Shown here piece by piece: positions 5,512 to 30,851 of a DNA stretch of 64,000 bases. Both the position numbers and the translations under genes were made by a program. Origin of the DNA: an uncultured Isosphaeraceae bacterium (lineage in GTDB: Bacteria > Planctomycetota > Planctomycetia > Isosphaerales > Isosphaeraceae). Each line of letters opens with the position of its first letter. The first letter of the stretch is position 1. Under the pieces are notes generated by a model. The model was not told where the DNA came from. It searched no databases and saw nothing but the letters and a program-made list of their open reading frames with translations. The DNA is taken from positions 232,197 to 296,196 of the forward strand of contig CAMFLR010000002.1 in assembly GCA_945957605.1 (NCBI GenBank), read 5' to 3'.

Positions 5512-5617
5512 GATCGGCCTCCCTTGCCCAGTCGTCGCGGCGCACGCCCCTGCACCGCTTCCCTTGGTCAAAGGGAATTCTATCACATCGTCGCAGTTGA
5601 GGTATCTTGGCCGACGG

Positions 5618-5974
5618 TCAGCCGCCGGCCGGAAGAAGCATCAACGCTTCCGTCAAATCGTCCGCCAGGGTAAACAACGAGATCAACTTCATGGTCGCGA
5701 GCGTGTCTCGAATGAACGGATCGACGTCAAACAGCACCATTTTGCCGTTCTTCGTGGCGACACGACGTCTTAGCGTGATCAAAAATCCGAAATCGGCGCT
5801 CGACATGTACTCGAGCTTACCGAGATCGATCGCATACCGGTTATCCTCGCGGTTTTGCACCGTCTTATAGAGCGCTTCACGATGCGCCGAGCTATCCTCG
5901 GGCGCGTCATCGCCTGTTTCTTCTAGCGTGATGACCATAACGCCCGCGACTTCGTGGGTCGAGCAGGTCAGCAT
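5618..5974 (-). CDS. STAS-domain protein (anti-sigma-factor antagonist, SpoIIAA-like)
   Basis: Translation ...VMVITLEETGDD...YAIDLGKLEYMSSADFGFLITLRRRVATKNGKMVLFDVDPFIRDTLATMKLISLF is typical of the STAS fold. The start is ambiguous between 6049 and 5974. Confidence 0.65.
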   Translation of the reverse strand: MLTCSTHEVAGVMVITLEETGDDAPEDSSAHREALYKTVQNREDNRYAIDLGKLEYMSSADFGFLITLRRRVATKNGKMVLFDVDPFIRDTLATMKLISLFTLADDLTEALMLLPAGG

Positions 5975-6234
5975 GGCGAGTAGCCCTTTACAGTCCAAAA
6001 GATTTGCGATGCAACAATATGCAACCGGATCAGGAGCCTGAGTGCTCACATCCTATACACTCTAGAACACTGCCGTAAACACCGGCGCCCGCCAAATCCG
6101 GAACAAACCGCCCGGATGCCCCTGGACGATCTTTCGTGGGGTCGCTACGCTGGGTCCCTGTCGATTGCGCAAAGTGTAATCGGCATCGCTCTCTTACAAT
6201 TGCATTTTTTCGACCCCTCGGGCGTTCGAACGCA

Positions 6235-6582: not shown

Positions 6583-7440
6583 TTGAAATCCAATCACCCC
6601 CGCACCCGCGTTCGTCGCGCGTCTGGCGGTTTCACGCTGATTGAGTTGCTGGTCGTCATCGCGATCATCGCAGTTCTCATCGCGCTGCTGCTCCCCGCCG
6701 TTCAGGCCGCACGCGAAGCCGCGCGGCGGGTCAGTTGCACGAGCAACCTCAAGCAAATCGGCCTGGCCCTCCACGGCTATCACGATGTACACAACACCTT
6801 CCCCTCAGGTGGTTGGATCGCCGTCTTCAACCAGCCACAGACGAACAACATGAACATCGGCTGGTCGGCCGTTGTTCTTCCCTGGCTCGAACAGCGCCCG
6901 CTTTATGACAGCTTGAACCTGAGCTTCACCTACAACCACGCGACAAACAGCACGGCCGTCTACACCGTGCTGAACATCTACCTTTGCCCGTCTGAGCCGC
7001 GCCAAACCAACTGGAATAAGGCTCCCGGCGACGCATATTCCTCGGCCGATGCCGACTACGGCGGCATTTACGGCCCTCGCGGACTCGTCTCGCCCACCGA
7101 CGCCAACAATCCCCCGCGCGGGGCAATGCTCTTCAATCAGCCAATCTCGCTGCCTCAGATCATCGACGGTTCCGCGCAGACGATCATCGTCGGCGAGGCC
7201 CCCGAAGCGATCAACGCGATGTGGGCGAGCGGCCACAACCTCTTCGACCAGGCATTTCCCATAAACTCCCGCCCCGCAGTCGAGTTGGGAGAGGAATTAA
7301 CCAGCCAGCATTCCGGCGGCGTCAACGTTCTGCATGCCGATGGCTCGGTTCATTTCCTCAAAAACTCGATCGCTCCCGCACCACTCTCTGCGCTTCTGAC
7401 CCGAGCGCAGGGCGAAGTGATCTCGTCCGACTCGTATTGA
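6583..7440 (+). CDS. DUF1559 domain protein with prepilin-type N-terminal cleavage/methylation motif
   Basis: [53 protein letters not shown] at the N-terminus and ...[21 protein letters not shown].. at the C-terminus (H-X9-DG). A TTG start at 6583 is preceded by ggaaggaaag. Confidence 0.85.
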
Positions 7441-7496
7441 TTTGACGCACTCGTACCGCACTCTCCCGAAAGATTTCCCAACAGGAGGTTCCGCCC

Positions 7497-8297
7497 ATGG
7501 CGTGGCACCGTCTCAAGCTCGCCTTACTCTTCCTCGTCTGCGCCGCCGGAATGGCTCGCGCCGATATCACGATCGACTTCAGCGATCACCCGCTCCCGCC
7601 CAACTCGTTCGACAACGGTAGCTCGGGAAGCGGTGGCTTCACTTCAAACGGCGCGTTCTTGAACAACTCATACGACTCGACTTTCAGCGCGTGGAGTGGC
7701 TGGTCACTCTCCAACGTCAACAACAAGACGACGGCGGGCTTCACGAATCAATACGCTGCGATCACCGGCACATCGCCAACCGGTTCGGGCACATATGCCA
7801 TTGCCAATACGTTCTCGCCCAACGACGCATTCATCAATCTGCCGACCGGATACTCAGCCTCGTCGTTCGATGTAACGAACACCACCTACGCATACCTGTC
7901 GATGAAAACTGGCGACCAGTTCGCCAAGAAGTTCACCACGGGCGACTTCTTCCTGCTGACCGTCACCGGCTATTCCGGACTCGGCGCCACTGGCACAGCA
8001 CTGGCCTCGATTCCGATCTATCTCGCGAACTACACATCCGACGAAGATAATCCGCTAAACGTCTGGCGCAATGTCGGCCTGACTTCGCTTGCTGGGGCCA
8101 AAAGCCTCGGCTTCAGCCTGACTTCGTCCGACAACGGCCAGTTCGGCATGAACACTCCGGCCTACTTCGCGATGGACGAACTCGTCCTCACCCCAACCGC
8201 CGTCCCCGAACCCTCGAGCCTGGCGCTGGCCGGAATCGGCATCGCGGGTTTCGCGGCTGTGCGCTACCGTCGGTCGCGATTGAAAAAGAAGGCCTGA
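7497..8297 (+). CDS. PEP-CTERM-anchored secreted protein (Ser/Thr/Asn-rich, unknown function)
   Basis: Signal peptide MAWHRLKLALLFLVCAAGMARA. The C-terminus VPEPSSLALAGIGIAGFAAVRYRRSRLKKKA carries the PEP-CTERM sorting signal. Confidence 0.8.
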   Translation: MAWHRLKLALLFLVCAAGMARADITIDFSDHPLPPNSFDNGSSGSGGFTSNGAFLNNSYDSTFSAWSGWSLSNVNNKTTAGFTNQYAAITGTSPTGSGTYAIANTFSPNDAFINLPTGYSASSFDVTNTTYAYLSMKTGDQFAKKFTTGDFFLLTVTGYSGLGATGTALASIPIYLANYTSDEDNPLNVWRNVGLTSLAGAKSLGFSLTSSDNGQFGMNTPAYFAMDELVLTPTAVPEPSSLALAGIGIAGFAAVRYRRSRLKKKA

Positions 8298-8683: not shown

Positions 8684-11167
8684 ATGATGCCTTTGAAGGG
8701 GTTAAGGATAACCGTCGCCGTCGTCGCTCTCGGCGCTCTGCTCATCACGCCTGCATTCGGTCAGAAAGAGACCAGCAATTCACTCGCGCGTTACGTTCCA
8801 TCCGACGGGCTGAGCATCCTGCTCGAACACGATGGCCTCCACTCGCAGCCCAAGGTCTGGGAAGCGAGCGCGACGTACAAGATGCTCAACGAAACCAAGC
8901 TGGGGATCATGCTTGAGGATATCCTCACGCAATTGATCGACCACGGCCTTCGTTCGGTTCCACAGCCGCCGCTCAAGGGCAAGGAAATTGTCGGTCTCGT
9001 CGAACACCTGATCGACAAAGGCTTCGCCATCGGCTACTGCGGCCCGCTCAACGCGCCAACGCCAAAGGCCGCCGTGGTAGTCATTCGCGACGCCAATAAG
9101 AGTGACACGTTCAAGAAACTGATGAAGATGATCCCCCAGGCCCAGGAACCGGCTGCCAAGCAGATTGACGCCCCTGGCGGCCGCAAAGTCTGGACGATGG
9201 AAGGTGCCCCGGTCCGCTGGTGGTTCGAGAAGGATGACTTCGTCTTCTCCTTCGCTCCTCCCGGCGCTCCCGATCCTGTCGTTGCCGTCCTCGAAGGCAC
9301 CGCTCCCAGCGCACTCAAATCGCCCCTGCGCAACACGCTTTGGAAAGGGACCTCGTCCGACTACACCCCTATCGGCGTCCTCTTCGTCGATCTCTCAACC
9401 CTTCCCCAGCTCCCGCCTCAAGCGGTTCAGCTTGGACTCGACGGCGTGAAGGCGGTCGAGGCAAGTTGGGGTCTGCAAGGTAAGGCGACGGTCACGATGA
9501 TCGGCATTCAGGCGCCCAAACCGCGCCGGGGGATCATCGCCCTGTTCGACCAGCCCGCGATCGGCACAGCGACTCGCTACACCCCAGCCGACGGCGGAAA
9601 CGACTACACCGTCATGTCGATCGAGCCCGGCAAATTCGTCGATGGCATCTTCGCGCTGATGAAGCAAGCCGACGCGAACTCCGCCGCCAATGCCCAGAAA
9701 TTTGCAGCCGAATTCGAGCGCCGAACGCAGGTCAACTTGCGTAAGGATCTCCTCGGCAAGGTCGGACCGCGTATCGCTTTCTCAAGTGGAGGCGGTCTCG
9801 GCCTGAGCAACATCTTCGGCATGTGGTTCCACCCGCCGGATTTCGGAATCGTCGCCGAGTTGAAAGACCCCGAAGCATTCCAGGCCACGCTCGACAAATT
9901 GATCGCCTCGCTCAATCGCGAGTTGCGAAGTGCAGGCGCAATGGTCCCGCCGCAGCCGGGCCAGCCGGTGCGCAAAGGAACGGCCTACGCGGAATTCCGC
10001 AAACTCCCCGCGCCTGATAACGGCTACATTCTGTCGATTCCTCCTTCGGTACTCACTTTGCCGAGCGGGTTCCGGCCAACGGTGATGATCGACGCCAAGC
10101 GCAACTTGATCGCCCTCGGCGGCACAGCGAAATCGGCCGCCAAGGCTCTCACTTCGCTCGACCTTAACGCCAAGGGTGGCGAGCCAATCGCTGAAAAGGA
10201 CGCGGTCGTTTTCTCGAAGTCAGACCAGGCTCAAATCTTGCCCGAACTCCTCACGAACGTGCCCGCGATCGTGCAGTTCTTCGGTTTCGCCGCAGCACAG
10301 CCCGGCCCTGGGCGTCCCGGCGGGCCTCCGTTCCGCCTCGAAATGGATCCCGACTCGATCCCCGATCCCGACTCGATGCGTAAATTCATGTTCCCGTCGA
10401 CATACACAATGTCGGTCGACAACGATTCGATTCGCTTCACTGGCTACCAGCCGTTCCCGCTCGCAATTCCGCAGATCAGCGGAGGCATGGAAGCCCCGGT
10501 GCTCGTCGCCCTGCTGCTGCCGGCCGTTCAGGCGGCACGTGAAGCGGCCCGACGCGCCCAGTGCGTCAACAATCTCAAGCAGATTGGTCTGGCAATGCAC
10601 AACCATCACGCCGCGCTCGACGGCTTGCCGCCCCGAGCCATCACGAACGCTGCCGGCAAGCCACTACTGAGCTGGCGCGTGGCGATTTTGCCCTACATCG
10701 AACAGCAGGCGCTTTACGAAAAGTTCAAGCTCGATGAACCCTGGGATAGCCCCCATAACAGCGAACTGATCAAGTACATGCCACAGATTTATATGTGCCC
10801 GTCTCGCACAGGCGACGCAAAGGACGGCCAAACCAACTACCAGGCATTCGCTGGCGAAGGTGCCCTGTTCGACTCGCGTCGCAAGGTTTCGTTCGCCCGA
10901 GTGACCGACGGGCTCTCGAACACCCTCATGGTGGTTGAAGCCTCAACGCCAGTCACCTGGACCAAGCCCGATGACCTGCCGTTCGACGCAGCCGCAGCCA
11001 ATCCCGCGAAGCCGCTCTTCGGCGCGGGCTCCAGCCACGCCGGCGGGTTCAACGCACTCATGGGAGACGGTTCCGTTCGCTTCATCAAGTCATTGGTCTC
11101 GCCGCAAGTGATGCGTGCATTGATCACCCGCGCCGGCGGCGAAATCCTCGGTGCCGACTCGTTCTGA
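8684..11167 (+). CDS. Large secreted fusion protein: ~590-aa novel N-terminal domain plus C-terminal DUF1559 domain without the pilin-like leader
   Basis: Signal peptide [27 protein letters not shown]. The internal ...[33 protein letters not shown]... and C-terminal ...[46 protein letters not shown] are DUF1559-like. Confidence 0.8.
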
Positions 11168-11434
11168 CACCCGCAAATTCTTGCCACATTTCCCAGACCG
11201 CCGTTCCGCGCACTTAGGATGAGAGTGCGGGGCGGCGGTTTGGTTTTGCCCCAAAACGTCCTGAATGATCGCTGCAACCGTCAAGGTTGACGCAATAAAC
11301 ACTGAATTTATCGTTACTTCCCGCATTTGCGGCACCCTCGGTGGAAATGTTGCAGGCTGGTGAAACGTCATCCGATTTTGTCGCTGTTGGGTGAAGCCTG
11401 CCCACGCGAGTAACTCCGTGCCTCGGAGCGATGG

Positions 11435-13141
11435 ATGACCATAAGGATGCGGCAATCGGTGTCAGGATGGCGCAGAAAGGTGATCGCGATCGGCGTCGTT
11501 GCCGGTCTCGTGGGCTCGTGTGGATTAAATCGAAGCGCCGTCGCGCAATCGCCGTCTGATTCCGTTGTTGCAAGCAGTGTCATCCGACCCGGATCGGGAA
11601 ATCGAGCCGACGAAGTAAATTCAATCCCGGCCGAGGTCGATTTGCAACGCGCCGTGTTGGCCTACAAGAGCGGCCAATTCGAAGAGGCAATCAGCCGGCT
11701 CGACGGCATCAGCGCGAAGTCTCCCAGCGCGTCGTATTATCGCGGCCTCTCGTTGCTCGGTTTGAAACGGCCGGACGACGCTCTCAAAGTCTTCGAATCC
11801 CTCGATCAATCACCCGAATCACCAATCGAAGCCAAGCTCGGCATCGGTGCCAGCCGGCTCGAACGCGGCGACGTCAAGGAAGCGGCCGAAGCACTCGACG
11901 GCTATCTTAAAGCGAAGCCCAACGACCTCTACGCGCATTACCTGCTCGGCGTCGCACTCTTCAAACAAGGCCGTGCCGACGAATCAAAGATTCACCTCGC
12001 GCGAGCGAATACCGACACCGCACTCTCGCCATTTCTCGACGAATACAAAGCTCTCATCGAATCGGCCGAAGCCGCCGAGCCGCTTCCTCCCCTACCCGCC
12101 TCGGCGGGAGGAACCGGCTCGATCGTCCCGCCCGAGAACAACTACATCCGCGGCAATTTCATCAATCGCATGAACGCACCACCCGGCGGCCCCGGCACAA
12201 TCCCAGGCCCCGGAACAACCGGAGTGGGTGGAGCAACAACCGGCGCCGCCAATCCCGACCGTCGTTGGAACCTCGCGACGGTTAACGGCTACGAATACGA
12301 CACGAACGTCGCCCTCGCGCCCGGTTTCCTCATCACCGGCCTGGGCGCAGCCGCGCATCGGCCCGACTCGCGGTACACGTTCGCCAACTTCGGCGAATAT
12401 CGTTTTATTCAGCAGCAAGATCTCGTCGCCGGCTTCATCGGTTCAACCTACGACACCTTCCAGTTCCACCTGCCGCAGTACAACATTCAAGATTACATGG
12501 GCGGCATTTACGCCAACCAGGCGTTCGGCGACAAGATTCTCGGCGGACGCTACGAGTTCCACGAAAGCCTGCTCGGCGGCAAGCAATTCACGACGGATCA
12601 CCGCGTCACGCCCAACTTCACCTTCCGCGAGGGAAGCTTCGGCCACGTCACAGCGTTCTACGAATTCGAAGCCCTCACGGTTAACGGCCTCGCTCTCACT
12701 CCCGCACAGAGGCGAACCGGCAACATCAACGCAGTCGGTGTCACGCAGGCAATCTATCTCGCCAACGGCAACGGCCGCCTGTTCCTCAACTATCGCTACG
12801 AAAACGCTGCGACACAGGGGACCGACTTCGACCGCAACACGAATCAAATCAGCGCACGCGTCGAATATCCCTTGCCCGGCAAGATGGTATTCAACGCCGA
12901 ATTCCGCCAGTTTTTCGACAATTACATGCACGCGAACAGCCTCGATTTCCTCGGCCATCGCCGGTTCGACAATCGCATCGAATTCCGCACCGGCGTGCAG
13001 AAGTTCCTGACCGACCACTGGAGCCTGCGCGTCGACTACGTCTACATCAACAACACGTCAAACGTCGCCAATCTCTTCGGCACGAGTTTCTACAGCTACC
13101 ATCGCAACGTCATCGGCGCCCAAATGATTTACGACTTCTAA
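11435..13141 (+). CDS. TPR-repeat protein fused to a predicted outer-membrane beta-barrel (C-terminal ...MIYDF)
   Basis: Signal peptide, then TPR-like helices (LQRAVLAYKSGQFEEAISRL.., YYRGLSLLGLKRPDDALKVF.., AHYLLGVALFKQGRADES). The C-terminal half has alternating aromatic strands and ends in an aromatic residue, typical of OM beta-barrels. Confidence 0.7.
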   Translation: MTIRMRQSVSGWRRKVIAIGVVAGLVGSCGLNRSAVAQSPSDSVVASSVIRPGSGNRADEVNSIPAEVDLQRAVLAYKSGQFEEAISRLDGISAKSPSASYYRGLSLLGLKRPDDALKVFESLDQSPESPIEAKLGIGASRLERGDVKEAAEALDGYLKAKPNDLYAHYLLGVALFKQGRADESKIHLARANTDTALSPFLDEYKALIESAEAAEPLPPLPASAGGTGSIVPPENNYIRGNFINRMNAPPGGPGTIPGPGTTGVGGATTGAANPDRRWNLATVNGYEYDTNVALAPGFLITGLGAAAHRPDSRYTFANFGEYRFIQQQDLVAGFIGSTYDTFQFHLPQYNIQDYMGGIYANQAFGDKILGGRYEFHESLLGGKQFTTDHRVTPNFTFREGSFGHVTAFYEFEALTVNGLALTPAQRRTGNINAVGVTQAIYLANGNGRLFLNYRYENAATQGTDFDRNTNQISARVEYPLPGKMVFNAEFRQFFDNYMHANSLDFLGHRRFDNRIEFRTGVQKFLTDHWSLRVDYVYINNTSNVANLFGTSFYSYHRNVIGAQMIYDF

Positions 13142-13207
13142 TGCTTACGTCACGCGCCGCCGGCGAATCGTAATCATTCACAGACAATCGCAGAAAAGGT
13201 TAAACCG

Positions 13208-13549
13208 ATGTTCGCTCGCCTTCTTCAATATAGTTTGCTCGCCCTGCTGGGGACGCTCATCCTTAGCCACGGCACAGCGTCAGCTCAGTCCCCCGCGCCC
13301 GTCACCGTTCCAGCGGGCACGCCCGTCTGCAACTGCGGCGTTTACACCGGCCCGCACTATCACCTCACCGCGCAGTCAACGACTACCCCCCGGCTCTTCG
13401 GCCGCTCGGCGGGACTCAACAATCGCACCAACAACAGCGGACTGACCCCGAACGAACAGGGACTGCCGCGCGGTCGTCGTTACTACGGCGGACGTTACTT
13501 CGGCAGCTTCAACGATCGCTTCTACGGTCCGCAGTACGGCTATTTCTGA
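13208..13549 (+). CDS. Small secreted protein (113 aa), unknown
   Basis: Signal peptide MFARLLQYSLLALLGTLILSHGTASA; Gly/Tyr/Arg-rich C-terminus ending YGYF. Confidence 0.5.
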   Translation: MFARLLQYSLLALLGTLILSHGTASAQSPAPVTVPAGTPVCNCGVYTGPHYHLTAQSTTTPRLFGRSAGLNNRTNNSGLTPNEQGLPRGRRYYGGRYFGSFNDRFYGPQYGYF

Positions 13550-13620
13550 TCCGAATGTTTACAGTGGATGGGTCTGATTGCAATCCGTTCCACCGATCTC
13601 CGCGCCGGAGAGGTTATCTC

Positions 13621-16254
13621 ATGTCTGCTAACTCCTCTGAAAATATGAGAAAACCTCGCCGACGCGCAACGACTGCGCGCATCGAACCACTCGAGTCGCG
13701 CATCGTCCTCGACGCCACGTTCACCCAGATGTTCGGCCTCAACAACGCCACCAACACCGTCGTCTACGGCCCCAACCTGAACAGCAACAACGTCTCATAC
13801 ATCCACACGTTTCACATCACGTTTCTCAAAGACGCCGGCACCGCGAACCTGACATACAACACAGCGCAGCTCCACAACGACAACCTTGTTCATATTCCCA
13901 TCAGCGGAACCGTCACCGGTCCGCAGCCGACCGGATTCCACGGCGCCGAGCTCGACATCATCGTTAACGGCAACACGGCAAATCCCGCAGGCGTGATCAC
14001 AAGCTTCACCGACCTCGGCACCAGTCAACCCGGCGCGAACGGCAATGACACGATCTTCTTCATGCAAGGGATTCTGCTACCAGCCGGCGAAACCGTGAAT
14101 TCGATCGGCCTGGTCTTCAAAAACCAGTCCGTCGGCGAAATGACGCCGCTCATCCCACTCACATCGCTGACGATCGACACCATCGCCCCCAGCATCAAGT
14201 CGATCGGCCCAATTCCGTCGTCGAATCCCACTTCGGTCGACACGATCCCCGTCACGCTTACCGACGCAATCACACCTAGCTCCTTCACACTCAACGCGCT
14301 AAGCCTGACACGCGACGGCGCCAACGTGCCGCTCTCAAGCTCCGCAACAATTGCCCCAACCGATGGCACCAACACCAAGTTTCTCATCTCGGGTCTGAGC
14401 GGCTTCACGAACGTCAGCGGGAACTACAAGCTTACGATCAACGCCGCAAACCTCGTCGACCCCGCGCTGAATTCCGGCGCCGGACTCGTCTCCGCATCAT
14501 TCGGCGTCGGCACCGCGGCCCGCGCGATCCCCACCGTAACCGCCCCCGTCACTCCGCGCAACTCACCCGTTAGTTCGCTCACCGTCGACTTCTCCGCGCC
14601 CGTCGATGCAACCTCGTTCGGCCTCAGCGCACTCAGCTTATTGCGAAACAACGTGAATGTACCTCTGACGAACGCAGTGACGATTTCTCCCTCAAGCGGC
14701 AACGCCACGTCATTCACGATTAGCGGTTTGGGCGGATTCACATCGACCGACGGTTCTTACGTCTTCTCAGTCGACGGCACCAAGGTCTCCGACAGCGCGC
14801 ACACTCCGGGAACCGGGACGAGCGACGTCGGATTCGTCATCGACACCGTCGCACCCACGATCATCGGCGATAAGCTCACTTTCGCCGCACCAGGCGGAGC
14901 CCTCAACGCGGTCACGGTGAATCTGTCGAAGGACATCAACCCCACTTCGTTCACACCAGCATTACTCACACTCACCCGCGCGGGCGTACCCATCGATCTT
15001 AGCCATTTAACGATCACGTCGAATAACGGTTCGCGCTCAAGCTTCATCGTCTCTGGCCTTGGACCCTTCACGACCGAATCAGGAAGCTACATCCTCTCGA
15101 TCGACCCGAGCGGTCTTCGAGACGATGCCGGCAATTCGGGCACCGGTGCACCACTCGCCATTCCGTTCACGGTAAACGGTCCCAAAGTCACAGTCGTGGG
15201 ACCAATCGCCACGCCTCGGCTCGCCCCGCTCGACCCCGTTGCCATCACGTTCTCAGGTCCGATTGACGCCAGCACATTCAATGGCTCGAACATCCTCCTC
15301 TCGCGCGACGGCGTGCCCGTACCACTCACTGGGCTCACCACGTCGCCTTCTTCCGGCGATGTCAGCAGCATCACTGTAAGCGGTCTTGCACCATTCACCA
15401 GCACGCCTGGTGTGTACGTTTTGAGTGCGATCGTCGGCAATTCGACCGACCCGTTCGGCAGCCCGCTCGCGGCTGGCGGCTATGCGACGTTCGTTGTGAA
15501 GGGCCAGCCCTCGGTTCTCGCGAGCGTTACACCCACAACCGACTTCCCGCAGTTCCCGAATCCGAACCCATATTTCCCGTTAAATTCGGCGATCGTCACC
15601 TTCACAGCTCCCATCAACCCTGGCTCATTTTCGCTTGATTCGATTCATCTCACGAACGGCAGCACGAACGTACCAATCATAAGCACCGTCACGATTACGC
15701 GAATCTCGGCCACGCAGTATCAAATCGGCAATCTCGCATCTGTCGCCGGCCGCGCGGGGCTGTATACCCTCACAATCACGCCCGGCACAATTGTCGATCT
15801 CTACAATCAATCCGTTCAAGGCACAGTTTCGACCACATACAATCACATCGTCAGCGCAAAAAATGGCGGACCTGCCGTGAAACGCGTCCAGCGCACGGCG
15901 AATCCGCACCAGCCGACGAACATTGTCATCACGTTCAATCACGCGCTCGACCAAACCTCCGCACTCAACCTCGCGAACTACGCCCTGTTCACCAAGCCGG
16001 CTCGTGGCATCGGTCAACCGGTTGTCATCGGCTACGCCAGCTACAAGGCCGCCACGAATCAGGTTACGCTCTACACCAGCTTCCCGATTCCCATCAAAAC
16101 AAAGCTTCAGCTTTTTGTGTATGGCACTGTCAGCACCGGCGTAACCGACACCCTCGGCCGGCCGCTCACGGGTAGCGTGCTCAATCCGAACGGTGGCGGC
16201 ACGTATGCGACCGTCTTCGGCGGTGCGAGCAGCGTGATCGGTCCCAAAAAGTAA
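13621..16254 (+). CDS. Giant secreted protein with about six tandem Ig-like/Big-like repeats; N-terminal planctomycete-type 'EPLESRIVLDA' motif
   Basis: Repeat units ...FTLNALSLTRDGANVPLSSSATIAPTDGTNTKFLISGLSGFTNVSGNYKLTI.. recur about every 100 aa. The track ORF starts at 13555; an internal Met at 13621 or 13645 is more likely. Confidence 0.75.
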   Translation: MSANSSENMRKPRRRATTARIEPLESRIVLDATFTQMFGLNNATNTVVYGPNLNSNNVSYIHTFHITFLKDAGTANLTYNTAQLHNDNLVHIPISGTVTGPQPTGFHGAELDIIVNGNTANPAGVITSFTDLGTSQPGANGNDTIFFMQGILLPAGETVNSIGLVFKNQSVGEMTPLIPLTSLTIDTIAPSIKSIGPIPSSNPTSVDTIPVTLTDAITPSSFTLNALSLTRDGANVPLSSSATIAPTDGTNTKFLISGLSGFTNVSGNYKLTINAANLVDPALNSGAGLVSASFGVGTAARAIPTVTAPVTPRNSPVSSLTVDFSAPVDATSFGLSALSLLRNNVNVPLTNAVTISPSSGNATSFTISGLGGFTSTDGSYVFSVDGTKVSDSAHTPGTGTSDVGFVIDTVAPTIIGDKLTFAAPGGALNAVTVNLSKDINPTSFTPALLTLTRAGVPIDLSHLTITSNNGSRSSFIVSGLGPFTTESGSYILSIDPSGLRDDAGNSGTGAPLAIPFTVNGPKVTVVGPIATPRLAPLDPVAITFSGPIDASTFNGSNILLSRDGVPVPLTGLTTSPSSGDVSSITVSGLAPFTSTPGVYVLSAIVGNSTDPFGSPLAAGGYATFVVKGQPSVLASVTPTTDFPQFPNPNPYFPLNSAIVTFTAPINPGSFSLDSIHLTNGSTNVPIISTVTITRISATQYQIGNLASVAGRAGLYTLTITPGTIVDLYNQSVQGTVSTTYNHIVSAKNGGPAVKRVQRTANPHQPTNIVITFNHALDQTSALNLANYALFTKPARGIGQPVVIGYASYKAATNQVTLYTSFPIPIKTKLQLFVYGTVSTGVTDTLGRPLTGSVLNPNGGGTYATVFGGASSVIGPKK

Positions 16255-16416: not shown

Positions 16417-19400
16417 ATGGCCGCGTTGATCGACGTCATTGCCTCATATGTACCCACCATATTGCGTCGACGGCTCGCTGCGGGAGCGGGTATTCGAACG
16501 CTCCTCGACATCGAGCATCACGATGCGGCCGTACTCTTCGCCGACATCTCCGGCTTCACGCGTCTGAGTGAACGCCTCGCCGAGCATGGCGCCGAAGGGC
16601 TCGAAGAATTAACGAATGCACTAAACACTTATTTTGATCGCCTCATCGAACTCATCGCCGAACATGGCGGGGACGTCGTGAAAATGGCCGGCGATGCCCT
16701 CATCGCCGTTTGGCCTTGCCGATCTGAAACCGACACACTCGCCGATCAAACCGCACGAGTCGCCCGCTGCTCGCTCCAGTTGCAAGAGTCTTTTCAAGAC
16801 TATCGCGTTGCCGAAGGGATCAACCTCACATCAAAAGTCGCGATTGCCGCGGGCCGCGTGCTCATCATGCACGTCGGTGGCGTGCGCGGGCGCTGGGAGA
16901 TGGCGATCGCCGGCGTGCCGCTCGCGGACATGGGATACGCCGAGAAAAAGGCCGGTCCCGGCGAAGTTGTGATGGCCCCCGCCGCCTGGGAATTGCTTAA
17001 ATCCGAATGCGTCGGCAAGGATCTCGGCGACAATTACTTTCTGCTGCAAGCGCTGAACACGTCCCCCTCGCCGAGCCCGCTCGACTCCCCCGCGCCGACG
17101 GTCGAAGTCGAGGATTCGCTCCGCTCCTATCTCCCGGGCGCGATCCGTGCGCGAATCGCCGCCGGTCAGACCGACTGGCTTGCCGAACTTCGTCGCCTGA
17201 CGGTCCTCTTCGTCCAGTTCCCCGCGATCGAGCTCGACCGGACCGACCTGCTGGAATGGACCCAGCGCACGATGGAAGCGCTTCAGGTCGCGATTTATCG
17301 CTTCGAAGGTAGTGTCAACAAGATCAGCATCGACGAGAAAGGCGCAACTCTCGTCGCCGCATTCGGCCTCCCGCCGCTCGCACATCCCGACGACGCACGC
17401 CTTGGTATCGAAGCCGCGAGCGCAGTGCGTGCCAGTCTCGGACGGCTAGGTCTCACCTGTGCCATCGGAATCGCGACGGGTCGCGTTTATTGCGGCGAAG
17501 TCGGTAACTCCAGACGCCGCGAATACACGATCATCGGCCGCACGGTCAATCTCGCCGCCCGACTCATGCAGGCCGCACATGATGGCAACCACATTTTCTG
17601 TGATGAAGAAACGTTTCACGCCGCTCAATCTTCGTTCGAATTCGACTCCCTGCCGGCGATCCGGCTCAAGAACATCGAGCAACCCGTCGCGATCTACCGC
17701 CCGATCCGCGCAAACGCCACGTCAACGCGATCGCACGATTCGATTGGCCGGTTCCGCGAACGCGCGCTCATCGCCGCCAAGCTCGACGCCGTAAAACAAG
17801 AGCGCGGCGGCGTTCTGGTGATCGAAGGCGAGCCGGGAATCGGCAAGTCGCGACTGATCGCCGACCTCTTCAATCAGGCCGAGGCAAACGGAATCGCCCT
17901 ATGGATCGGCGGCGGCGACGCCATCGAGCGCTCCACCGCATATCACGCCTGGCGTCCACTCATGATCAAAGTTCTTGGCATTGATGAAAATGCCGAGACC
18001 GAAATCCGCAACCGCCAGGCACTTTTGGGAATCGGCGAAGATCCTGAACTAAGCCGCCTCGCCGCGCTCCTCAACGACATCGTCCCCGTCGATCTCCCCG
18101 AGCTCGACCTCACGCGTCATATGGCCGGTCAGGTTCGTGCCGATAACACGAGCGTGCTCTTGCTCGGCCTGCTGAACAAGGCCGTGCGCAACGGCCCTTC
18201 GGTCGTGATTCTCGAAGATGCCCACTGGTTTGACTCATCATCGTGGGGACTGCTGCAACGCGCCGCACGATCGCTTCCCAACACACTTTTCGTGATCACA
18301 ACCCGCCCATCAGCCGGCGCATTTCCCGAAGAGCAAGCCGCGCTGCTTCAAATTCCCGGCGCCGAATTTCTCCGCCTCAAACCGCTCGACGCCGATGAAA
18401 CCCTCACGCTTGCGTGCCACCGAATGGGCGTCGCCCGGCTCCCCACAGCCGTATCAGAGCAAATCCTCGAAAAATCGCAGGGCAATCCGTTCTTCTGCGA
18501 AGAGCTGACCTACGCCCTTCGAGACTCGGGATTGCTCGTCATTAGCAACGGTCATTGCGAGCTCGCCCCTGGTGTCGATCTCAACGCGCTCAGCATGCCG
18601 AACCATGTCGAAGGCGTCGTTACCGGACGCATCGACCGACTCAACCCGTCGCAACAACTCACGCTCAAGGTCGCAAGCATCATCGGCCGGCTCTTCGCTG
18701 TGCGGCTTCTGCACGACGTCTACCCGATCGAGCCCGATCGTCTCGAACTGGCCGACCGCCTTGAATCACTCTCACAACTCGAACTGATTCAGCCCGACGA
18801 GCTCGAGTCGGAGTTCGCCTACCTGTTCCGCCACGTCATCACGCGCGACGTCGTTTACGACCTGATGCCAACATCACAGCGCAGGCAAATTCACCGCCGC
18901 GTGGCCGAGTGGTACGAATCGAAACAAGACGGCGACATCGCCACGTTTTACCCCTTGCTCGCCTATCACTGGACCCACGCGCAAGACGATGCCCGCGCGA
19001 TCGAATACCTCGAAAGGTCGGGCGAACAGGCCCTGCGTGTGGGCGCCTATCAAGAAGTTGTCGGCTTCCTCAACGAAGCGATTCGGCTCGTCAATCAATC
19101 AGGCGGCGTTCACGGCGATTTGACGAGGCTCGCTCGCTGGGAGTACTGGCTGGGCGAAGCACAGCTCGGGCTCGGCAACCTCGTGAAAAGCCAGGAACAC
19201 GCCTTTCGCGCGGTTGAATATCTCGGCTGCCAGGTCCCCAGCGGCGGGCGTCTGATCAGTAGCTTCATCGCCCAGCTCATTCAGCAAACCGCCAGGCGCA
19301 TGCGTGGCAAGCGAGGCACGACGACCGCAATGGGCGCCATGCCCGTCGAACTCCGTCTAGCATCATCAGCGTATGGACTCATCGGCGAGCTTTGCTATTT

Positions 19401-20505
19401 CAATCAAAACCGAACGCTAGGAATATATGCCGCCGTTCGCGCCCTCAACCTCGCCGAGAGCGAGGGTGGCAACTCGGTCGAGCTCGCGCGCAGCCTCGCC
19501 GTGATGTGCGTCGCCAGCGGACTGGTTCCGCTTCACTCGCAGGCGGAAGCGTATGGCAAGCGTGCGTTCGAAGTCGCATCGGCACTCGACGACTTGACGA
19601 CTCGTGCCTGGGTTCTGCAACTCACCGGCATGTACTACCTCGGCGTCGGCCGATGGGATGAAAGCCGGAAAAACCTCGAGCAGGCCGTCGAGCTCAACAA
19701 AAAGCTCGGCGATTGGCGGCGCTGGGAGGAATCGTCGGGCGAGCTGGCGCGGCTCGAGTATTACGCTGGCGAGTTCCATCACGGCGCCGATCGCTTTCGC
19801 GGGATTGGCGAAGTCGGCCGAGCGCGCGGCCACGTTCAAGCGATCGCCTGGGGTTTCAACGGCGGAGCCAAGCTCATGCTCCGGCTGGGACGTCTCGACG
19901 AGGCCCGGGCGATGCTCGAACAATCGCGACTGTTGCCAAGTGATGCTAGCGGCGTTGGCGACGCCATTCTCCGCGAAGGCCTTTTCGCCCTCGTCGAATT
20001 GGCTCGCGACGATTGGGACGGCGTACGTCAGGCCGCGCAGGAAACGCTGCGGCTTGCACAGCTTTCGCCGCCAATCGTTTCTTACACACTCGAAGGCTAC
20101 TCAGGAGCGGCTGCAGGATTCCTTGGCTTGTGGGAACGCTCAGACGTTCACGAGCGGCCGAAGTACGCGAAACTCGCCTGGACCGCCGTTCGTGAGTTGA
20201 GAAACATCGCGCGGGTTTTCCCCGTGGGACGTCCCCGAGCCTATCTCTGCCTCGGCGGCGCGTATTTGATGAACGGCCGAAAGCATCGCGCTTTCGCCGC
20301 CTGGACAAAATCACTCAACGCCGCCGAGAGCCTCAAGATGCCTTTCGAACGCGGACTGGCTCTGTACGAGATGGGCCGTCACAGCGATCCTCACGACCCT
20401 CGCGCCCGCGAGCTTCTCATCAGGGCAAAGGAAATCTTCGACGGACTCAGCGCGGGCCTCTATAGCGAACGAAGCCAGGTTGCTCTCGATAGACTCTCCC
20501 GCTAA
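16417..20505 (+). CDS. Class III adenylate/guanylate cyclase (two cyclase homology domains) fused to P-loop NTPase (STAND/AAA) and TPR region
   Basis: FADISGFTRLSE...MAGDALIAVW and a second cyclase domain (LTVLFVQFPAIEL..FEGSVNKISIDEKGATLVAAFG). Walker A GEPGIGKS at about residue 470, followed by a helical TPR-like C-terminus. Confidence 0.85.
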   Translation: MAALIDVIASYVPTILRRRLAAGAGIRTLLDIEHHDAAVLFADISGFTRLSERLAEHGAEGLEELTNALNTYFDRLIELIAEHGGDVVKMAGDALIAVWPCRSETDTLADQTARVARCSLQLQESFQDYRVAEGINLTSKVAIAAGRVLIMHVGGVRGRWEMAIAGVPLADMGYAEKKAGPGEVVMAPAAWELLKSECVGKDLGDNYFLLQALNTSPSPSPLDSPAPTVEVEDSLRSYLPGAIRARIAAGQTDWLAELRRLTVLFVQFPAIELDRTDLLEWTQRTMEALQVAIYRFEGSVNKISIDEKGATLVAAFGLPPLAHPDDARLGIEAASAVRASLGRLGLTCAIGIATGRVYCGEVGNSRRREYTIIGRTVNLAARLMQAAHDGNHIFCDEETFHAAQSSFEFDSLPAIRLKNIEQPVAIYRPIRANATSTRSHDSIGRFRERALIAAKLDAVKQERGGVLVIEGEPGIGKSRLIADLFNQAEANGIALWIGGGDAIERSTAYHAWRPLMIKVLGIDENAETEIRNRQALLGIGEDPELSRLAALLNDIVPVDLPELDLTRHMAGQVRADNTSVLLLGLLNKAVRNGPSVVILEDAHWFDSSSWGLLQRAARSLPNTLFVITTRPSAGAFPEEQAALLQIPGAEFLRLKPLDADETLTLACHRMGVARLPTAVSEQILEKSQGNPFFCEELTYALRDSGLLVISNGHCELAPGVDLNALSMPNHVEGVVTGRIDRLNPSQQLTLKVASIIGRLFAVRLLHDVYPIEPDRLELADRLESLSQLELIQPDELESEFAYLFRHVITRDVVYDLMPTSQRRQIHRRVAEWYESKQDGDIATFYPLLAYHWTHAQDDARAIEYLERSGEQALRVGAYQEVVGFLNEAIRLVNQSGGVHGDLTRLARWEYWLGEAQLGLGNLVKSQEHAFRAVEYLGCQVPSGGRLISSFIAQLIQQTARRMRGKRGTTTAMGAMPVELRLASSAYGLIGELCYFNQNRTLGIYAAVRALNLAESEGGNSVELARSLAVMCVASGLVPLHSQAEAYGKRAFEVASALDDLTTRAWVLQLTGMYYLGVGRWDESRKNLEQAVELNKKLGDWRRWEESSGELARLEYYAGEFHHGADRFRGIGEVGRARGHVQAIAWGFNGGAKLMLRLGRLDEARAMLEQSRLLPSDASGVGDAILREGLFALVELARDDWDGVRQAAQETLRLAQLSPPIVSYTLEGYSGAAAGFLGLWERSDVHERPKYAKLAWTAVRELRNIARVFPVGRPRAYLCLGGAYLMNGRKHRAFAAWTKSLNAAESLKMPFERGLALYEMGRHSDPHDPRARELLIRAKEIFDGLSAGLYSERSQVALDRLSR

Positions 20506-29049: not shown

Positions 29050-30039
29050 TCAAAACGAATCAGCACTAATCACTTCACCACCTTGAATCGTGCTCAGCGC
29101 GAACCAGGTGTAAGGGCTGATCGAGTTCTTGATGAACCTCACGCTGCCATCGCCGAACAGCATGTTCACGCCGCCGGGATGCTTGCTGCTGAAGTTCCAG
29201 GCATACGGCTTCTGCGGCGTCCCCGGCGGTGTCGCATTCGGCTGCGAGTACTGTTGCAAGGTCAGAGCGCTCTGGCTCGGGTCGAGAATTCGCCCGTGCA
29301 CGGCAGTGTGCGTACCCGCAGCCCAGTATGGGCCATATGCCGTCGCCTGTTTGATCTGGACCGATTCACCTAGCAGCATCGTGTTGCTCAAACCATCGCG
29401 AATTTCAGAAATCCGCGTCGCGTAATCGGTCCAGAACGGAGCCTTGAACTGAGTTGCAATGCTGCCGTAGGTGTAGCCGCAGTTGTAGTCGGTATAGCTA
29501 CCGGTATTGAACAGGTGGTTACTCCGCGCGACGTTGTTCCGTTCGTAAAAGTCCGTCGTGGAAAGCGCGTTCGACGTGACGGTTTGCGGAGGATCATCCG
29601 ACGGGCAAAGGAATGAGTTGATAATAAGACCGGTCACCGTGGTGTTCACCGCATCGGTGCCAATGACAGCCACACCGTACGGACTCGACATACTCGAAGC
29701 ATGGCTGAAGTTGAATGAGTTAAACGTCTGCTGCTGTTCCATCTGGCCGAGAATCAGCGAAAAACCGGTCGTGTTTTTCACACCGTAGCCAACGGGAGGA
29801 GTGGGCGTTGTTGGTGCATTACAGCGACCGCTACCAATCATCGGCGGCGGAAATGCAGTGTTTGCACTCTCATAATTGTGAAGCGCAAGGCCGACCTGTT
29901 TCAAATTGTTCACGCACTGGGCGCGTCTGGCAGCCTCACGCGCGGCCTGCACGGCCGGCAAAAGCAGCGCAATCAACACGGCGATAATCGCGATGACAAC
30001 GAGAAGTTCAATGAGCGTGAACCCACGGCGCAAGCGCAT
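29050..30039 (-). CDS. DUF1559 domain protein with prepilin-type N-terminal motif
   Basis: [56 protein letters not shown]...[21 protein letters not shown]. The ATG at 30039 is preceded by AGGAGAT. Confidence 0.85.
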
Positions 30040-30851
30040 AAGAATCTCCTGACGTGATGAATGACGTGAAATCACGAAACGAGAAACGGCGACCTGTCAG
30101 CTCAGAAAAAGCCGACGCGTCACAATCGAAAGGGAGAGAGAATCCAGCGGCGAAAGAGGCATGCCTGAAAGGTCTTCGGAAGAGACGAAGACTCAATCAG
30201 AAGATTTGGTGAAATGGTTTCCTGATGAATTACCAATGATTTTATATATCGTGAATTCAACACGACGCAAGTAAAAAAAGTCGCTGTTGTCTAATTTCTC
30301 CACTGAAGAGAAACTCAACGCATTCTCGGGCCGGCGCACTCCGTTCTGTCGCTTATTTATGAGCAGTTTATCAAACTCCGCGATCAGACTTCCGCATCGA
30401 CCGTAACCTCCCGCCTTGACGTCATGAATTCGTCTTGCGCAATTTAAACCGAATACTTGTTTTCTTCTATTAAATGAGCCAAACCGCGAATATCTATATT
30501 CGTTCCCATGAGCGATTCAAACATTTCTAGAAGACTATGAACTGCGTTAACTGACTCTTGCGCACTTTGAACCAAAGAGCATCACAACTGCTACCACGCT
30601 TATGAGCGGAGCAAATCGAAACGTACGGACTCGCCCCACATGTGAACCCGTTGCGAGTCTTCGACGTAGAAATAGGAGCCCGAGGCCGGGCCGAGCCGTG
30701 ACCATCTGAACACCGAGGCCGGGCGATTTTCGGATCCTGGTGTGGTGCCCCTGGCCTTCCCGCGCTAAACTGGTAGGCGGCAACGTTCCTGTGCCGACCT
30801 ACCTGACCATTGCCGGGCGTTCTCTCCATCCGTCGCGAACGGAGCCGAGCT

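Follow-up and report, generated by a model that had tools for sequence, protein, structure and literature searches.

Genes and features of the interval

Within the window, by which we mean the whole 64-kb stretch of DNA that was analysed, four adjacent open reading frames (g1 to g4) lie on the + strand, separated by gaps of 267 bp (g1/g2), 66 bp (g2/g3) and 71 bp (g3/g4). The earlier note had described four co-directional genes here, and their coordinates and common orientation were confirmed with only minor numerical corrections. For g4 the ATG at 13621 is taken as the start; GGAGAGG stands 8 nt upstream and public gene calls use the same codon. The g1-g4 protein sequences are identical on all three contigs examined, which come from three separate assemblies. 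The features are as follows.

8684-11167, + strand: g1, 827 aa
g1 aa 1-26, + strand: Sec signal peptide at the N-terminus
8771-10453, + strand: g1 aa 30-590, alpha/beta N-domain, a confident ~560-aa fold, partly TP0453-like
g1 aa 595-611, + strand: disordered linker (domain architecture)
g1 aa 603-645, + strand: long helix (structure model)
10490-10618, + strand: what g1 keeps of the pilin alpha1 helix, its C-terminal half (junction conservation, model, hydropathy)
g1 to aa ~815, + strand: DUF1559/H-X9-DG pilin-like head (Pfam)
11194-11242, + strand: terminator-like hairpin past g1; ~22-bp stem, then UUUGGUUUUG (U-run)
11287-11314, + strand: sigma-70-like promoter match upstream of g2, TTGACG-16-TATCGT (weak evidence)
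11435-13141, + strand: g2, 568 aa
g2 N-terminus, + strand: signal peptide (domain architecture)
g2 aa 63-210, + strand: TPR domain (AF2 helices; Pfam TPR matches at aa ~67-200)
g2 aa 213-273, + strand: disordered Gly/Pro-rich linker (AF2)
g2 aa 278-567, + strand: 14-strand beta-barrel (AF2)
13208-13549, + strand: g3, 113 aa
13463-13546, + strand: near-invariant 28-aa C-terminus of g3, LPRGRRYYGGRYFGSFNDRFYGPQYGYF (comparison of module loci)
13621-16254, + strand: g4, 877 aa (899 aa from an alternative start at 13555)
13681-13716, + strand: g4 aa 21-32, LExRxLL-type motif RIEPLESRIVLDA in a basic N-terminus
14236-15849, + strand: g4 aa 206-743, five clear tandem Ig-like (Big_5-type) repeats of ~100 aa

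The g1 fusion protein and its genomic context

The C-terminal region of g1 (aa 616 to ~810) matches Pfam DUF1559/SBP_bac_10 with an E value of 7e-50 and carries the H-X9-DG motif at aa 781-802, while aa 1-600 gave no Pfam match. A search of g1 for an N_methyl/prepilin motif found none, in agreement with its earlier description as a DUF1559 fusion without the pilin-like leader, and unlike the canonical DUF1559 protein encoded at 6583-7440, where matches to PF07963 and TIGR02532 mark the prepilin motif; a second canonical copy is located at 29050-30075 on the - strand. g1 lacks the GFTLIE leader as well as the membrane-spanning half of the pilin helix; hydropathy at the junction peaks at 1.48 (19-aa window), compared with 3.35 for a canonical pilin transmembrane segment. 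The junction is invariant across 44 full-length homologues, and the fusion is kept full-length in ~50 Isosphaeraceae protein clusters at 37-60% identity.

The sole significant solved-fold match of the g1 N-domain was TP0453, a membrane-associated lipoprotein of Treponema; similarity to DUF3352 was weak and sub-threshold. No enzyme family could be assigned. In this reading g1 consists of a pilin-like DUF1559 head, shorn of prepilin leader and transmembrane half-helix, flexibly linked to a Sec-exported domain. Such a protein is predicted to be soluble or membrane-peripheral in the periplasm and incapable of pseudopilin-type processing or assembly; as a guess, it might act as an envelope adaptor or bind lipid.

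The hairpin downstream lies 27 nt past the g1 stop codon, and a 96-nt segment spanning it has a minimum free energy of -43.6 kcal/mol (z = -4.15; 0 of 200 shuffles folded equally well). Analogous hairpins lie 3' of g1 at two related loci, L005 (z = -3.37) and L052 (seen by eye in the sequence). A simple terminator scan did not call the g1 hairpin, and sigma-70-like matches in the region were no more numerous than expected from shuffles; promoter and terminator calls are consensus-based predictions, and the consensus may not fit Planctomycetes.

Neither g2, g3 nor X610 (a protein usually encoded between them, described below) was found near g1 orthologues at L004, L022, L023, L024, L025 and L035 (at least 6 informative contexts), nor at 23 metagenome loci with g1 homologues, nor beside N-domain-only relatives with long flanks. 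Beyond one narrow Isosphaeraceae clade, g2 homologues were likewise without g1. Adjacency of g1 and g2 is confined to a single syntenic clade (the window, L005/L006 and L052-54). Because the window, L005 and L052-54 have in common a much longer syntenic block, comprising a 955-aa gene, STAS, DUF1559, DUF4465, g1 and g2, this adjacency reflects shared ancestry and not independent retention. At L022, where the module is absent, ~2 kb separate the g1 orthologue from that of the window's cyclase gene (16417-20505), which suggests that g2-g4 forms a block situated between g1 and the cyclase gene.

The gene set around g2

The previous view of g2 as TPR repeats joined to an outer-membrane beta-barrel was borne out by the Pfam TPR matches and the AF2 14-strand barrel, and the protein ends, as reported, in IYDF. 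A profile built from the barrel only found 1222 relatives. Among the remote relatives, 6/55 matched PF04575 SlipAM and 18/55 matched TPR_Slam; P0243 (30.3 bits) and P0216 (25.0 bits) passed the SlipAM cut-off of 22, and hhalign paired the g2 barrel profile with P0243 at 99.1% (E 7e-19, 283 columns). The link from g2 to Slam is transitive, running through these intermediates: g2 itself has no direct match to PF04575, its TPR_Slam match is sub-threshold, and the same remote relatives also weakly match the BBP2_2, EpsL and TIGR03016 barrel families. Sequence comparison relates g2 distantly to the barrels of the Slam/T11SS group (SlipAM/DUF560), with homology at the superfamily level. In three remote relatives a FecR gene directly follows the barrel, accompanied by large beta-rich or lipobox proteins (FG-GAP; Big_5 with LAGC/LVAC lipoboxes). 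Remote relatives also occur beside CHASE2 cyclases, an arrangement that fits signalling as well as secretion.

Homologues of g2 were located at 14 genome loci, and g2 and g3 recur together with a large Ig/cadherin-type protein in 12 non-redundant loci of three planctomycete families. The full set, shared by Isosphaeraceae, Pirellulaceae and Planctomycetaceae, has four parts: a g2-type protein, X610, a g3-type protein and a variable large LExRxLL repeat protein without a Sec signal. X610 is a protein of ~610 aa with a FecR domain (9/11 members), to which planctomycete members add a conserved C-terminal domain of ~300 aa. It directly follows g2 in every intact locus having downstream flank, and 12/12 of these loci have a g3-type ORF no more than ~3.5 kb away. 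In L005 and L052, the two closest relatives, X610 separates g2 from g3; at that position the window has only the 66-bp gap, and X610 is absent from all of its 64 kb. The window's g2-g3-g4 is a reduced copy of the set, from which X610 is missing. Because the usual FecR-domain partner has been deleted here, this copy would be either reduced or served in trans, and it may be defective.

A signal-peptide-like N-terminus, a variable linker and a Gly/Tyr/Phe-rich C-terminus make up g3, as expected of the 113-aa secreted Gly/Tyr-rich protein described earlier. Members of its family (~100 aa) share a near-invariant C-terminus, ...RYFGxFNxRFYGPQYGYF, and g3 and g2 matches were found on shared contigs. 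This aromatic-glycine peptide, which ends in Phe, likely docks to the barrel or to the barrel's partner.

The product of g4 has 877 aa, not the 878 first given, and five of the six Ig-like repeats attributed to it are clear (Pfam Big_5); the C-terminal ~120 aa form a probable sixth, recognised by eye and missed by the seed search. Its planctomycete N-terminal motif ('EPLESRIVLDA') was confirmed as the LExRxLL-type motif listed above. Neither g4 nor its giant counterparts at other loci carry a Sec or lipoprotein signal, and no g4 orthologue was detectable in the closest relatives. We counted 11 large ORFs led by LExRxLL in the module loci (213 kb), each of them beside the module, compared with 2 in 220 kb of control planctomycete loci. 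We found no described function for the LEPR-XLL motif in the literature. Position and leader motif together suggest that g4 is likely a displayed cargo or adhesin.

Interpretation and comparison with known systems

We favour, with a probability of about 0.55, a reading in which the interval comprises two unrelated units: g1, a monocistronic, independent gene outside the downstream module, and g2-g3-g4, a divergent T11SS-like surface-display module. In T11SS the cargo gene adjoins the gene for the outer-membrane protein (PMC8406197, PMC12282271). By this analogy g2 would be an outer-membrane translocon or anchor that puts neighbour-encoded proteins on the cell surface, with g4, which bears the basic/LExRxLL leader, as the likely cargo or adhesin, the g3 peptide serving as a docking part, and X610 deleted from its normal place right after the barrel. 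Points that weigh against this reading are the transitive nature of the Slam link, the lack of a Sec or lipoprotein signal in g4 and the giants, and the absence of X610 from the window.

The earlier note had instead combined all four genes into one dedicated envelope or secretion machine, with the g1 DUF1559 domain as a pseudopilin-like component alongside the g2 channel and the g4 adhesin. The genes are indeed adjacent and co-directional, and two related lineages (L005 and L052-54) have g1 next to g2 as well, but this adjacency lies inside the longer syntenic block, a hairpin with a U-run intervenes, other g1 orthologues lack the module and other modules lack g1, and g1 has neither the leader nor the transmembrane segment that assembly into a pseudopilus requires. 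This model is highly improbable and already largely refuted; the idea of a module survives for g2, g3 and the large Ig/cadherin-type protein, not for g1, which differs from them in distribution and, as predicted, in transcription. That the locus is not a T2SS or T4P locus was upheld. It is highly improbable that g2 is a solute/oligosaccharide channel or polysaccharide-export porin with a TPR scaffold (CymA/OmpG- or PgaA/BcsC-like) and that its neighbours are coincidental: the barrel has 14 strands as against 16 in PgaA and BcsC, the conserved neighbourhood holds no glycosyltransferase or synthase, the neighbours are kept across three families, and profile comparison of the sequences leads to SlipAM instead of CymA/KdgM or PgaA.

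Loss of the FecR-domain gene, present in every other intact locus, could also mean that g2-g3-g4 is a decaying, non-functional remnant. We consider this improbable, as all three ORFs are intact and their products identical in three assemblies, the excision of X610 is clean and without pseudogene debris, and another part of the genome could carry X610. Rather unlikely is a trans-envelope signalling device in which the barrel and a periplasmic FecR protein pass a signal from the cell surface on to a sensor in the inner membrane or cytoplasm. The FecA-FecR relay works in this way and FecR-CHASE2 operons may too; operons pairing FecR-domain proteins with CHASE2 kinases are documented in Burkholderia (PMC5192318). 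The frequency of FecR domains in X610 is in keeping with such a device, as are a CHASE2-guanylate cyclase adjoining the barrel and FecR pair in 3/3 remote relatives examined, a cyclase-STAND gene just downstream in the window, and a Ser/Thr kinase and CHAT protease flanking the Pirellulaceae modules. However, CHASE2 proteins are absent from the surroundings of every planctomycete module, the cyclase orthologue occurs at L022 without the module, the window has no FecR partner, and the tight tie to huge, variable LExRxLL repeat proteins and a secreted peptide-like protein is more cargo-like than signalling.

Turning to known systems with the two-unit reading, the C-terminal domain of g1 resembles the DUF1559/H-X9-DG prepilin-type proteins (PF07596, TIGR04294) and keeps their invariant helix segment. 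Canonical members are stand-alone proteins of ~285-340 aa, whereas in g1 the head comes after a Sec signal peptide and 560 aa of periplasmic domain, and there is no prepilin cleavage/methylation motif. Treponema pallidum TP0453 (PDB 3k8g-3k8j), an outer-membrane-associated protein, shares 9-11% identity with g1 and is a lipoprotein, which g1 is not. TP0453 reportedly inserts into membranes.

Like proteins with the LEPR-XLL N-terminal domain (NF012209), g4 and all giant neighbours open with basic residues and then LE-x-R-x-LL; the g4 match to NF012209 is weak, its 11.9 bits falling short of the cut-off of 17, and none of the other giants tested matched. As in FecR-domain/CHASE2 operons and FecA-FecR signalling, module relatives pair a barrel with a periplasmic FecR-domain protein, and those outside Planctomycetes carry a CHASE2 cyclase, whereas the window has no FecR-domain gene, CHASE2 protein or TonB-dependent transducer.

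The Slam/T11SS proteins (PF04575 SlipAM = DUF560; for example Neisseria Slam1/2, Xenorhabdus NilB and Acinetobacter HsmA) have the same architecture as g2, an N-terminal periplasmic TPR domain and a C-terminal 14-strand barrel, and candidate clients are encoded beside g2-type barrels too, lipobox proteins being among them in remote relatives. The T11SS cargo hallmark, a C-terminal 8-strand TbpBBD/lipoprotein C barrel, was not found by Pfam among g2 neighbours, and the g2 partners (a FecR-domain protein, a small GY-rich protein and LExRxLL-led giants) are not known from T11SS. The T11SS literature covers Proteobacteria only, whereas the host of g2 belongs to the Planctomycetota; the g2 family would thus place a distant relative of the Slam/type 11 barrel outside the sole phylum in which it has been described so far.

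The four genes and the boundary after g1

Four open reading frames occupy the plus strand where an earlier note had placed them, and its description needed only small corrections. We refer to them as g1 to g4:

8684-11167, +, g1, DUF1559 fusion protein, 827 aa
11435-13141, +, g2, TPR repeats and a 14-strand barrel, 568 aa
13208-13549, +, g3, signal peptide and Gly/Tyr/Phe-rich tail, 113 aa
ATG at 13621, +, g4, Ig-repeat giant, 877 aa; good Shine-Dalgarno sequence, start used by public gene calls

The note had read these genes as one dedicated envelope or secretion module. Half of this interpretation held: g2 belongs to a recurring gene set, while neither local structure nor gene distribution supports a single four-gene machine that includes g1. 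A hairpin lies 27 nt past the g1 stop codon (a stem of ~22 bp, then UUUGGUUUUG). It was missed by a simple terminator scan and recovered by folding, the 96-nt segment having an MFE of -43.6 kcal/mol (z = -4.15), a stability that 0 of 200 shuffles reached. At the corresponding place after g1, two of the loci (L numbers) retrieved with homologues of g1 or g2, L005 (z = -3.37) and L052, have hairpins that differ in sequence. A promoter-like site, which is weak evidence, follows 3' of the hairpin at 11287-11314, and no significant terminator structure was found after g4.

Elsewhere, four long contigs (L004, L022, L023, L024) have the g1 orthologue by itself, with unrelated genes around it. Neither g2, g3 nor X610 (a ~610-aa FecR-domain protein usual in the g2 gene set) occurs near g1-type genes in any of 23 metagenome loci retrieved with the g1 N-domain, where flanking sequence exists. 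Adjacency of g1 and g2 was found only in the window, L005/L006 and L052-54; because these loci have a longer syntenic block in common (955-aa gene, STAS, DUF1559, DUF4465-PEP-CTERM, g1, g2), they represent one clade. Moreover, ~2 kb separates the L022 orthologue of g1 (59% identity) from that of the window's cyclase-STAND gene (54% identity), so that g2-g4 resembles a block between old neighbours. Taken together, these results place g1 outside the downstream g2-g4 unit, and they caution that shared direction and adjacency of genes need not mean one system. The note's statement that this is not a recognisable T2SS or T4P locus was borne out, as secretin, GspE/PilB ATPase, GspF/PilC platform and prepilin peptidase families matched neither the four proteins nor their immediate neighbours.

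The surrounding genes are as follows:

2719-5586, -, 955-aa secreted protein; three internal ~140-aa N-terminal repeats (WIGQD..H..G motif) and a weak NosD/beta-helix-like region
5618-6049, -, STAS-domain gene (anti-sigma antagonist-like), adjoining the 955-aa gene
6583-7440, +, canonical DUF1559 prepilin-type gene, 285 aa, with prepilin N-methylation motif
16417-20505, +, class III adenylate/guanylate cyclase with AAA_16 (STAND) and TPR, 1362 aa, no CHASE2

No confident family was found for the 955-aa protein; both its gene and the STAS gene are conserved in L005. At 6583-8297 (+) the canonical DUF1559 gene is followed after 56 bp by a 266-aa DUF4465 protein with a PEP-CTERM sorting signal, which may be a pairing of pseudopilin and exosortase substrate; this pair is syntenic, together with the upstream STAS and 955-aa genes, in L005 and L052-54. 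The cyclase was considered as a module member and rejected, since it has no CHASE2 domain and its L022 orthologue sits beside g1 without g2-g4. There it lies on the strand opposite the g1 orthologue, with no g2-g4 between.

A DUF1559 fusion family without a prepilin leader

The C-terminus of g1 is a DUF1559/SBP_bac_10 domain (PF07596, E 7e-50, from aa 616) with an H-X9-DG motif (TIGR04294, E 5.6e-9, aa 781-802), and its first 600 residues have no match in Pfam or NCBIfam. These C-terminal features are common to g1 and DUF1559/H-X9-DG prepilin-type proteins, but g1 is without their leader and hydrophobic alpha1-N segment. As the note had described, the domain is leaderless: Pfam/NCBIfam searches detected the prepilin N-methylation motif in the canonical gene at 6583-7440 and no N_methyl match (G|FTLIE, PF07963/TIGR02532) in g1. 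The best 19-aa hydropathy at the g1 junction is 1.48, versus 3.35 for the transmembrane segment of the neighbouring canonical protein.

Searching 5.8 billion proteins returned 62 relatives, the named ones all Isosphaeraceae or Singulisphaera. About 50 of the 62 are full-length (37-60% identity), and all of these carry the DUF1559 domain. The junction is nearly invariant across 44 aligned full-length members, which keep the C-terminal half of the pilin alpha1 helix and have lost the cleavage site and ~10 hydrophobic residues; an AxA-type Sec signal peptide is conserved in the family. A frameshifted or merged gene was rejected, since the other frames hold no leader remnant and the junction is common to the 44 homologues. 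We conclude that g1 is the lone member in the window of a new leaderless DUF1559 fusion family. Because the domain ahead of the pilin-like segment is Sec-exported and the hydrophobic segment is too short for a membrane, neither processing by prepilin peptidase nor pseudopilus assembly would be expected, and g1 is most likely a periplasmic or membrane-peripheral protein.

In the AF2 model of g1, which was good (pLDDT 83.9, pTM 0.72), the N-domain (aa 30-590) is compact and alpha/beta; after it come a linker that is disordered (595-611), a helix of 43 residues (603-645) and a head resembling a pilin. Fold comparison of the N-domain ranked the Treponema pallidum lipoprotein TP0453 ahead of weak PsbP/Mog1-, LpqN-, DcrB-, RseB/MucB-, LolB- and START-like matches. 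None was an enzyme fold; the note had named assignment to a known enzyme family as a result that would refute its module. DUF3352 (PF11832) matched sub-threshold in 8 of 49 family members (best E 0.012, 14.7 bits vs a gathering score of 26.8), with no match in the g1 protein of the window itself. Among more distant relatives the N-domain occurs alone (proteins P0061 and P0062; loci L032, L034, L040, L041, L045). Three further 'N-domain-only' relatives (P0052, P0057, P0058) have Arg/Pro/Ser-rich tails resembling out-of-frame translation; they probably stem from frameshifts or faulty assembly and are no genuine short forms, and were left out of this evidence. Another distant relative, P0059 (882 aa), retains the N-domain along with a vestige of the pilin helix (GLLMPALQAARQAALKA), its DUF1559 head being replaced by long Gly/Pro-rich low-complexity sequence.

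Planctomycetes carry up to hundreds of DUF1559 pilin-like proteins per bacterium, plus dozens of giant repeat proteins. The g1 family indicates that a pilus context is not needed for the DUF1559 head and its invariant helix segment to work, which limits ideas on the role of DUF1559 proteins.

A recurring planctomycete gene set

When one genome per GTDB species was scanned, g2 homologues (30-63% identity) turned up in 14 loci of Isosphaeraceae, Pirellulaceae (Novipirellula, Rhodopirellula, Rubripirellula) and Planctomycetaceae, whose gene content was read by tblastn and ORF inspection. The recurring set consists of g2, X610 directly downstream (0-75 bp; ~570-640 aa), a g3-type ORF no more than ~3.5 kb away on either strand, and a large cadherin/Ig/HYR/FG-GAP-type protein of 600 to >1900 aa. 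X610 always directly follows the g2-type barrel gene, for example at:

L005, 10417-12324
L007, 11875-13707
L052, 8227-10146

X610 carries a signal peptide, and 9 of 11 members have an N-terminal FecR domain. The protein is weakly similar to the LapA retention module (E 0.004), and its N-terminus matches PDB 5ix9, annotated as an antifreeze protein, marginally (E 0.002). The C-terminal half (~300 aa) is strongly conserved, with invariant RRSDQDR and TGQTRF motifs, and has no family in Pfam/NCBIfam. No X610 gene was found across the 64 kb of the window, where g2 and g3 are just 66 bp apart; it is kept in both of the window's closest relatives, and has been cleanly lost in the window's lineage.

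Members of the g3 family have a signal peptide (type I in g3) joined by a variable linker to a tail that is near-invariant (LP-x-GR-x-YY-x-x-RY[FY]G[NS][FY]N[ND]R[FY][FY]GPQYGYF) and ~79% identical between orders. The family comprises 44 protein clusters, all annotated 'hypothetical' and without a Pfam family; g3 itself matched neither Pfam nor NCBIfam, and the tail motif is absent from the searchable literature.

The fourth gene encodes a protein with the RIEPLESRIVLDA motif, a Big_5 match and five clear tandem repeats of ~100 aa. The note had counted six: the C-terminal ~120 aa is a probable sixth repeat by eye, though the seed search gave no match there. No hydrophobic signal peptide is present in g4, whose best 12-aa hydropathy window is 1.08 vs 2.2-2.7 for g1-g3. 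Every large neighbour of the module likewise starts with a basic stretch followed by LE-x-R-x-LL (hereafter LExRxLL), and none has a hydrophobic signal. Large ORFs led by this motif number 11 across 213 kb of module loci, all module-adjacent, and 2 across 220 kb of control planctomycete loci; the window has one, g4. With the LEPR-XLL family (NF012209, a 24-aa N-terminal domain) g4 scores 11.9 bits (E 0.13), below the 17-bit cut-off; the LE-x-R-x-[LVI]L motif is visible in its sequence. Our search of the literature on LEPR-XLL and on planctomycete outer-membrane secretion returned nothing relevant. No orthologue of g4 was found, even in the closest relatives, as expected if it is a variable cargo. 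Taken together, g2-g3-g4 represents, in reduced form, a planctomycete gene set that had not been described before and has a Slam-like barrel at its centre.

Several further features accompany these loci. Between 12001 and 16000 of the window, GC skew is -0.22 to -0.24, about twice as negative as in the flanks (-0.08 to -0.12), with GC content unchanged. This is where g2-g4 lie, and the skew could stem from their Thr/Ser/Pro/Asn-rich composition or from an origin of the block apart from its flanks. In the closely related L052, the HYR-domain LExRxLL protein of the module has an RVT_1 (reverse-transcriptase) ORF (11659-12318) immediately downstream, which may be a retroelement or diversity-generating element beside a variable surface protein. 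Five Pirellulaceae loci (L012, L015, L017, L018, L021) have a conserved opposite-strand triad downstream of the module, encoding a TPR-CHAT protein (caspase-like, ~1030 aa), a protein without a family (~370 aa) and a TPR-bearing Ser/Thr kinase (~810 aa); in L007 a Peptidase_C14 caspase lies upstream of the module in place of this triad.

The g2 barrel and the Slam/T11SS superfamily

An AF2 model of g2 built with 32 homologues (mean pLDDT 75.9, barrel mostly >85) places TPR helices at aa 63-210 and a 14-strand barrel at 278-567, with a Gly/Pro linker between them that is disordered (213-273). Direct Pfam/NCBIfam searches matched the TPR part only (TPR_16 at E 4e-17; TPR_Slam sub-threshold, 19.4 vs 35.2 bits), leaving the barrel unmatched, with no PF04575 (SlipAM, the DUF560 barrel) match even at E<=10. 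PDB profile searches with g2, its barrel alone and X610 gave TPR matches only, plus the marginal 5ix9. A barrel-only profile retrieved 1222 relatives at E <= 1e-3 from 1.84 billion representatives. Among 55 remote relatives, 6 matched SlipAM and 18 TPR_Slam. The g2-family barrel profile matched two database proteins, P0243 (E 5e-20) and P0216 (E 2e-23), which score 30.3 and 25.0 bits vs the PF04575 gathering score of 22, and hhalign of the g2 profile with P0243 gave 99.1% probability (E 7e-19, 283 columns). The same intermediates also match BBP2_2, EpsL and TIGR03016 barrels weakly. Since the intermediates pass the SlipAM cut-off and the hhalign result agrees, g2 is predicted from sequence profiles to be a divergent member of the superfamily containing the T11SS (type 11 secretion) outer-membrane proteins, a placement at superfamily level and not to a T11SS cluster.

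In T11SS, the barrel takes proteins encoded beside it through the outer membrane or onto it (PMC8406197, PMC12282271). On this analogy, g2 would be an outer-membrane translocon or anchor, g4 its cargo, displayed as an Ig-repeat adhesin, and the g3 tail, Phe-ended like a beta-signal, a docking element. Three observations weigh against a translocon: Pfam detects no T11SS-type cargo barrel, the LExRxLL proteins have no known inner-membrane route, and the FecR partner is missing in the window. The main rival is that the g2 set is a trans-envelope signalling device, for which the FecR/CHASE2 associations of g2 relatives argue. In the non-planctomycete relatives L048, L049 and L051, a ~300-aa FecR protein directly follows the barrel, so that the pairing of barrel and FecR domain appears ancient, and a CHASE2-guanylate cyclase is nearby. 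These loci also encode large beta-rich proteins (FG-GAP, cohesin, Big_5 with lipoboxes), and the lipoboxes of the two downstream proteins in L051 read LAGC and LVAC. One of these two proteins matches the NCBIfam 'signal integration modulator SinM' weakly (64.9 bits vs a cut-off of 250).

It is unlikely that g2 is a plain channel or an exopolysaccharide porin of the PgaA/BcsC type. NCBIfam does match g2 to PgaA/BcsC, through the TPR only (E~0.015), but such porins have a 16-strand barrel and long TPR, against 14 strands in g2; moreover, no synthase or glycosyltransferase genes are neighbours, and the protein neighbours of g2 are conserved.

Returning to the translocon reading, its fullest form is that Planctomycetes have their own Slam/T11SS branch, with a FecR partner and a small ...RYFGxFNxRFYGPQYGYF-tail protein, that exports or anchors LExRxLL-led giants without a classical signal. 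Alongside it, members of the g1 family would be 'soluble pilins', routed through Sec and incompetent for assembly, that join a TP0453-like lipid- or membrane-binding domain to a DUF1559 head. We give this combined proposal roughly one chance in four. If true, the LExRxLL motif would be a new secretion or sorting signal, and T11SS would reach past Proteobacteria.

Looking forward, the association of a barrel-centred set with LExRxLL giants in three families provides a testable candidate export route; with Novipirellula and Rhodopirellula, there are carriers that can be cultured and in which surface display is open to testing. The T11SS papers give the family as proteobacterial, with Planctomycetes unmentioned (PMC8406197, PMC12282271); the superfamily-level placement of g2 would extend the Slam/T11SS superfamily to another phylum. 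Cargo of T11SS has a C-terminal 8-strand barrel (TbpBBD/lipoprotein C) and is often a lipoprotein, a barrel that Pfam does not detect in g3, g4, X610 or the giants. As for the outer-membrane component itself, g2 is predicted to have the architecture of T11SS/Slam proteins, an N-terminal periplasmic TPR region followed by a 14-strand barrel.
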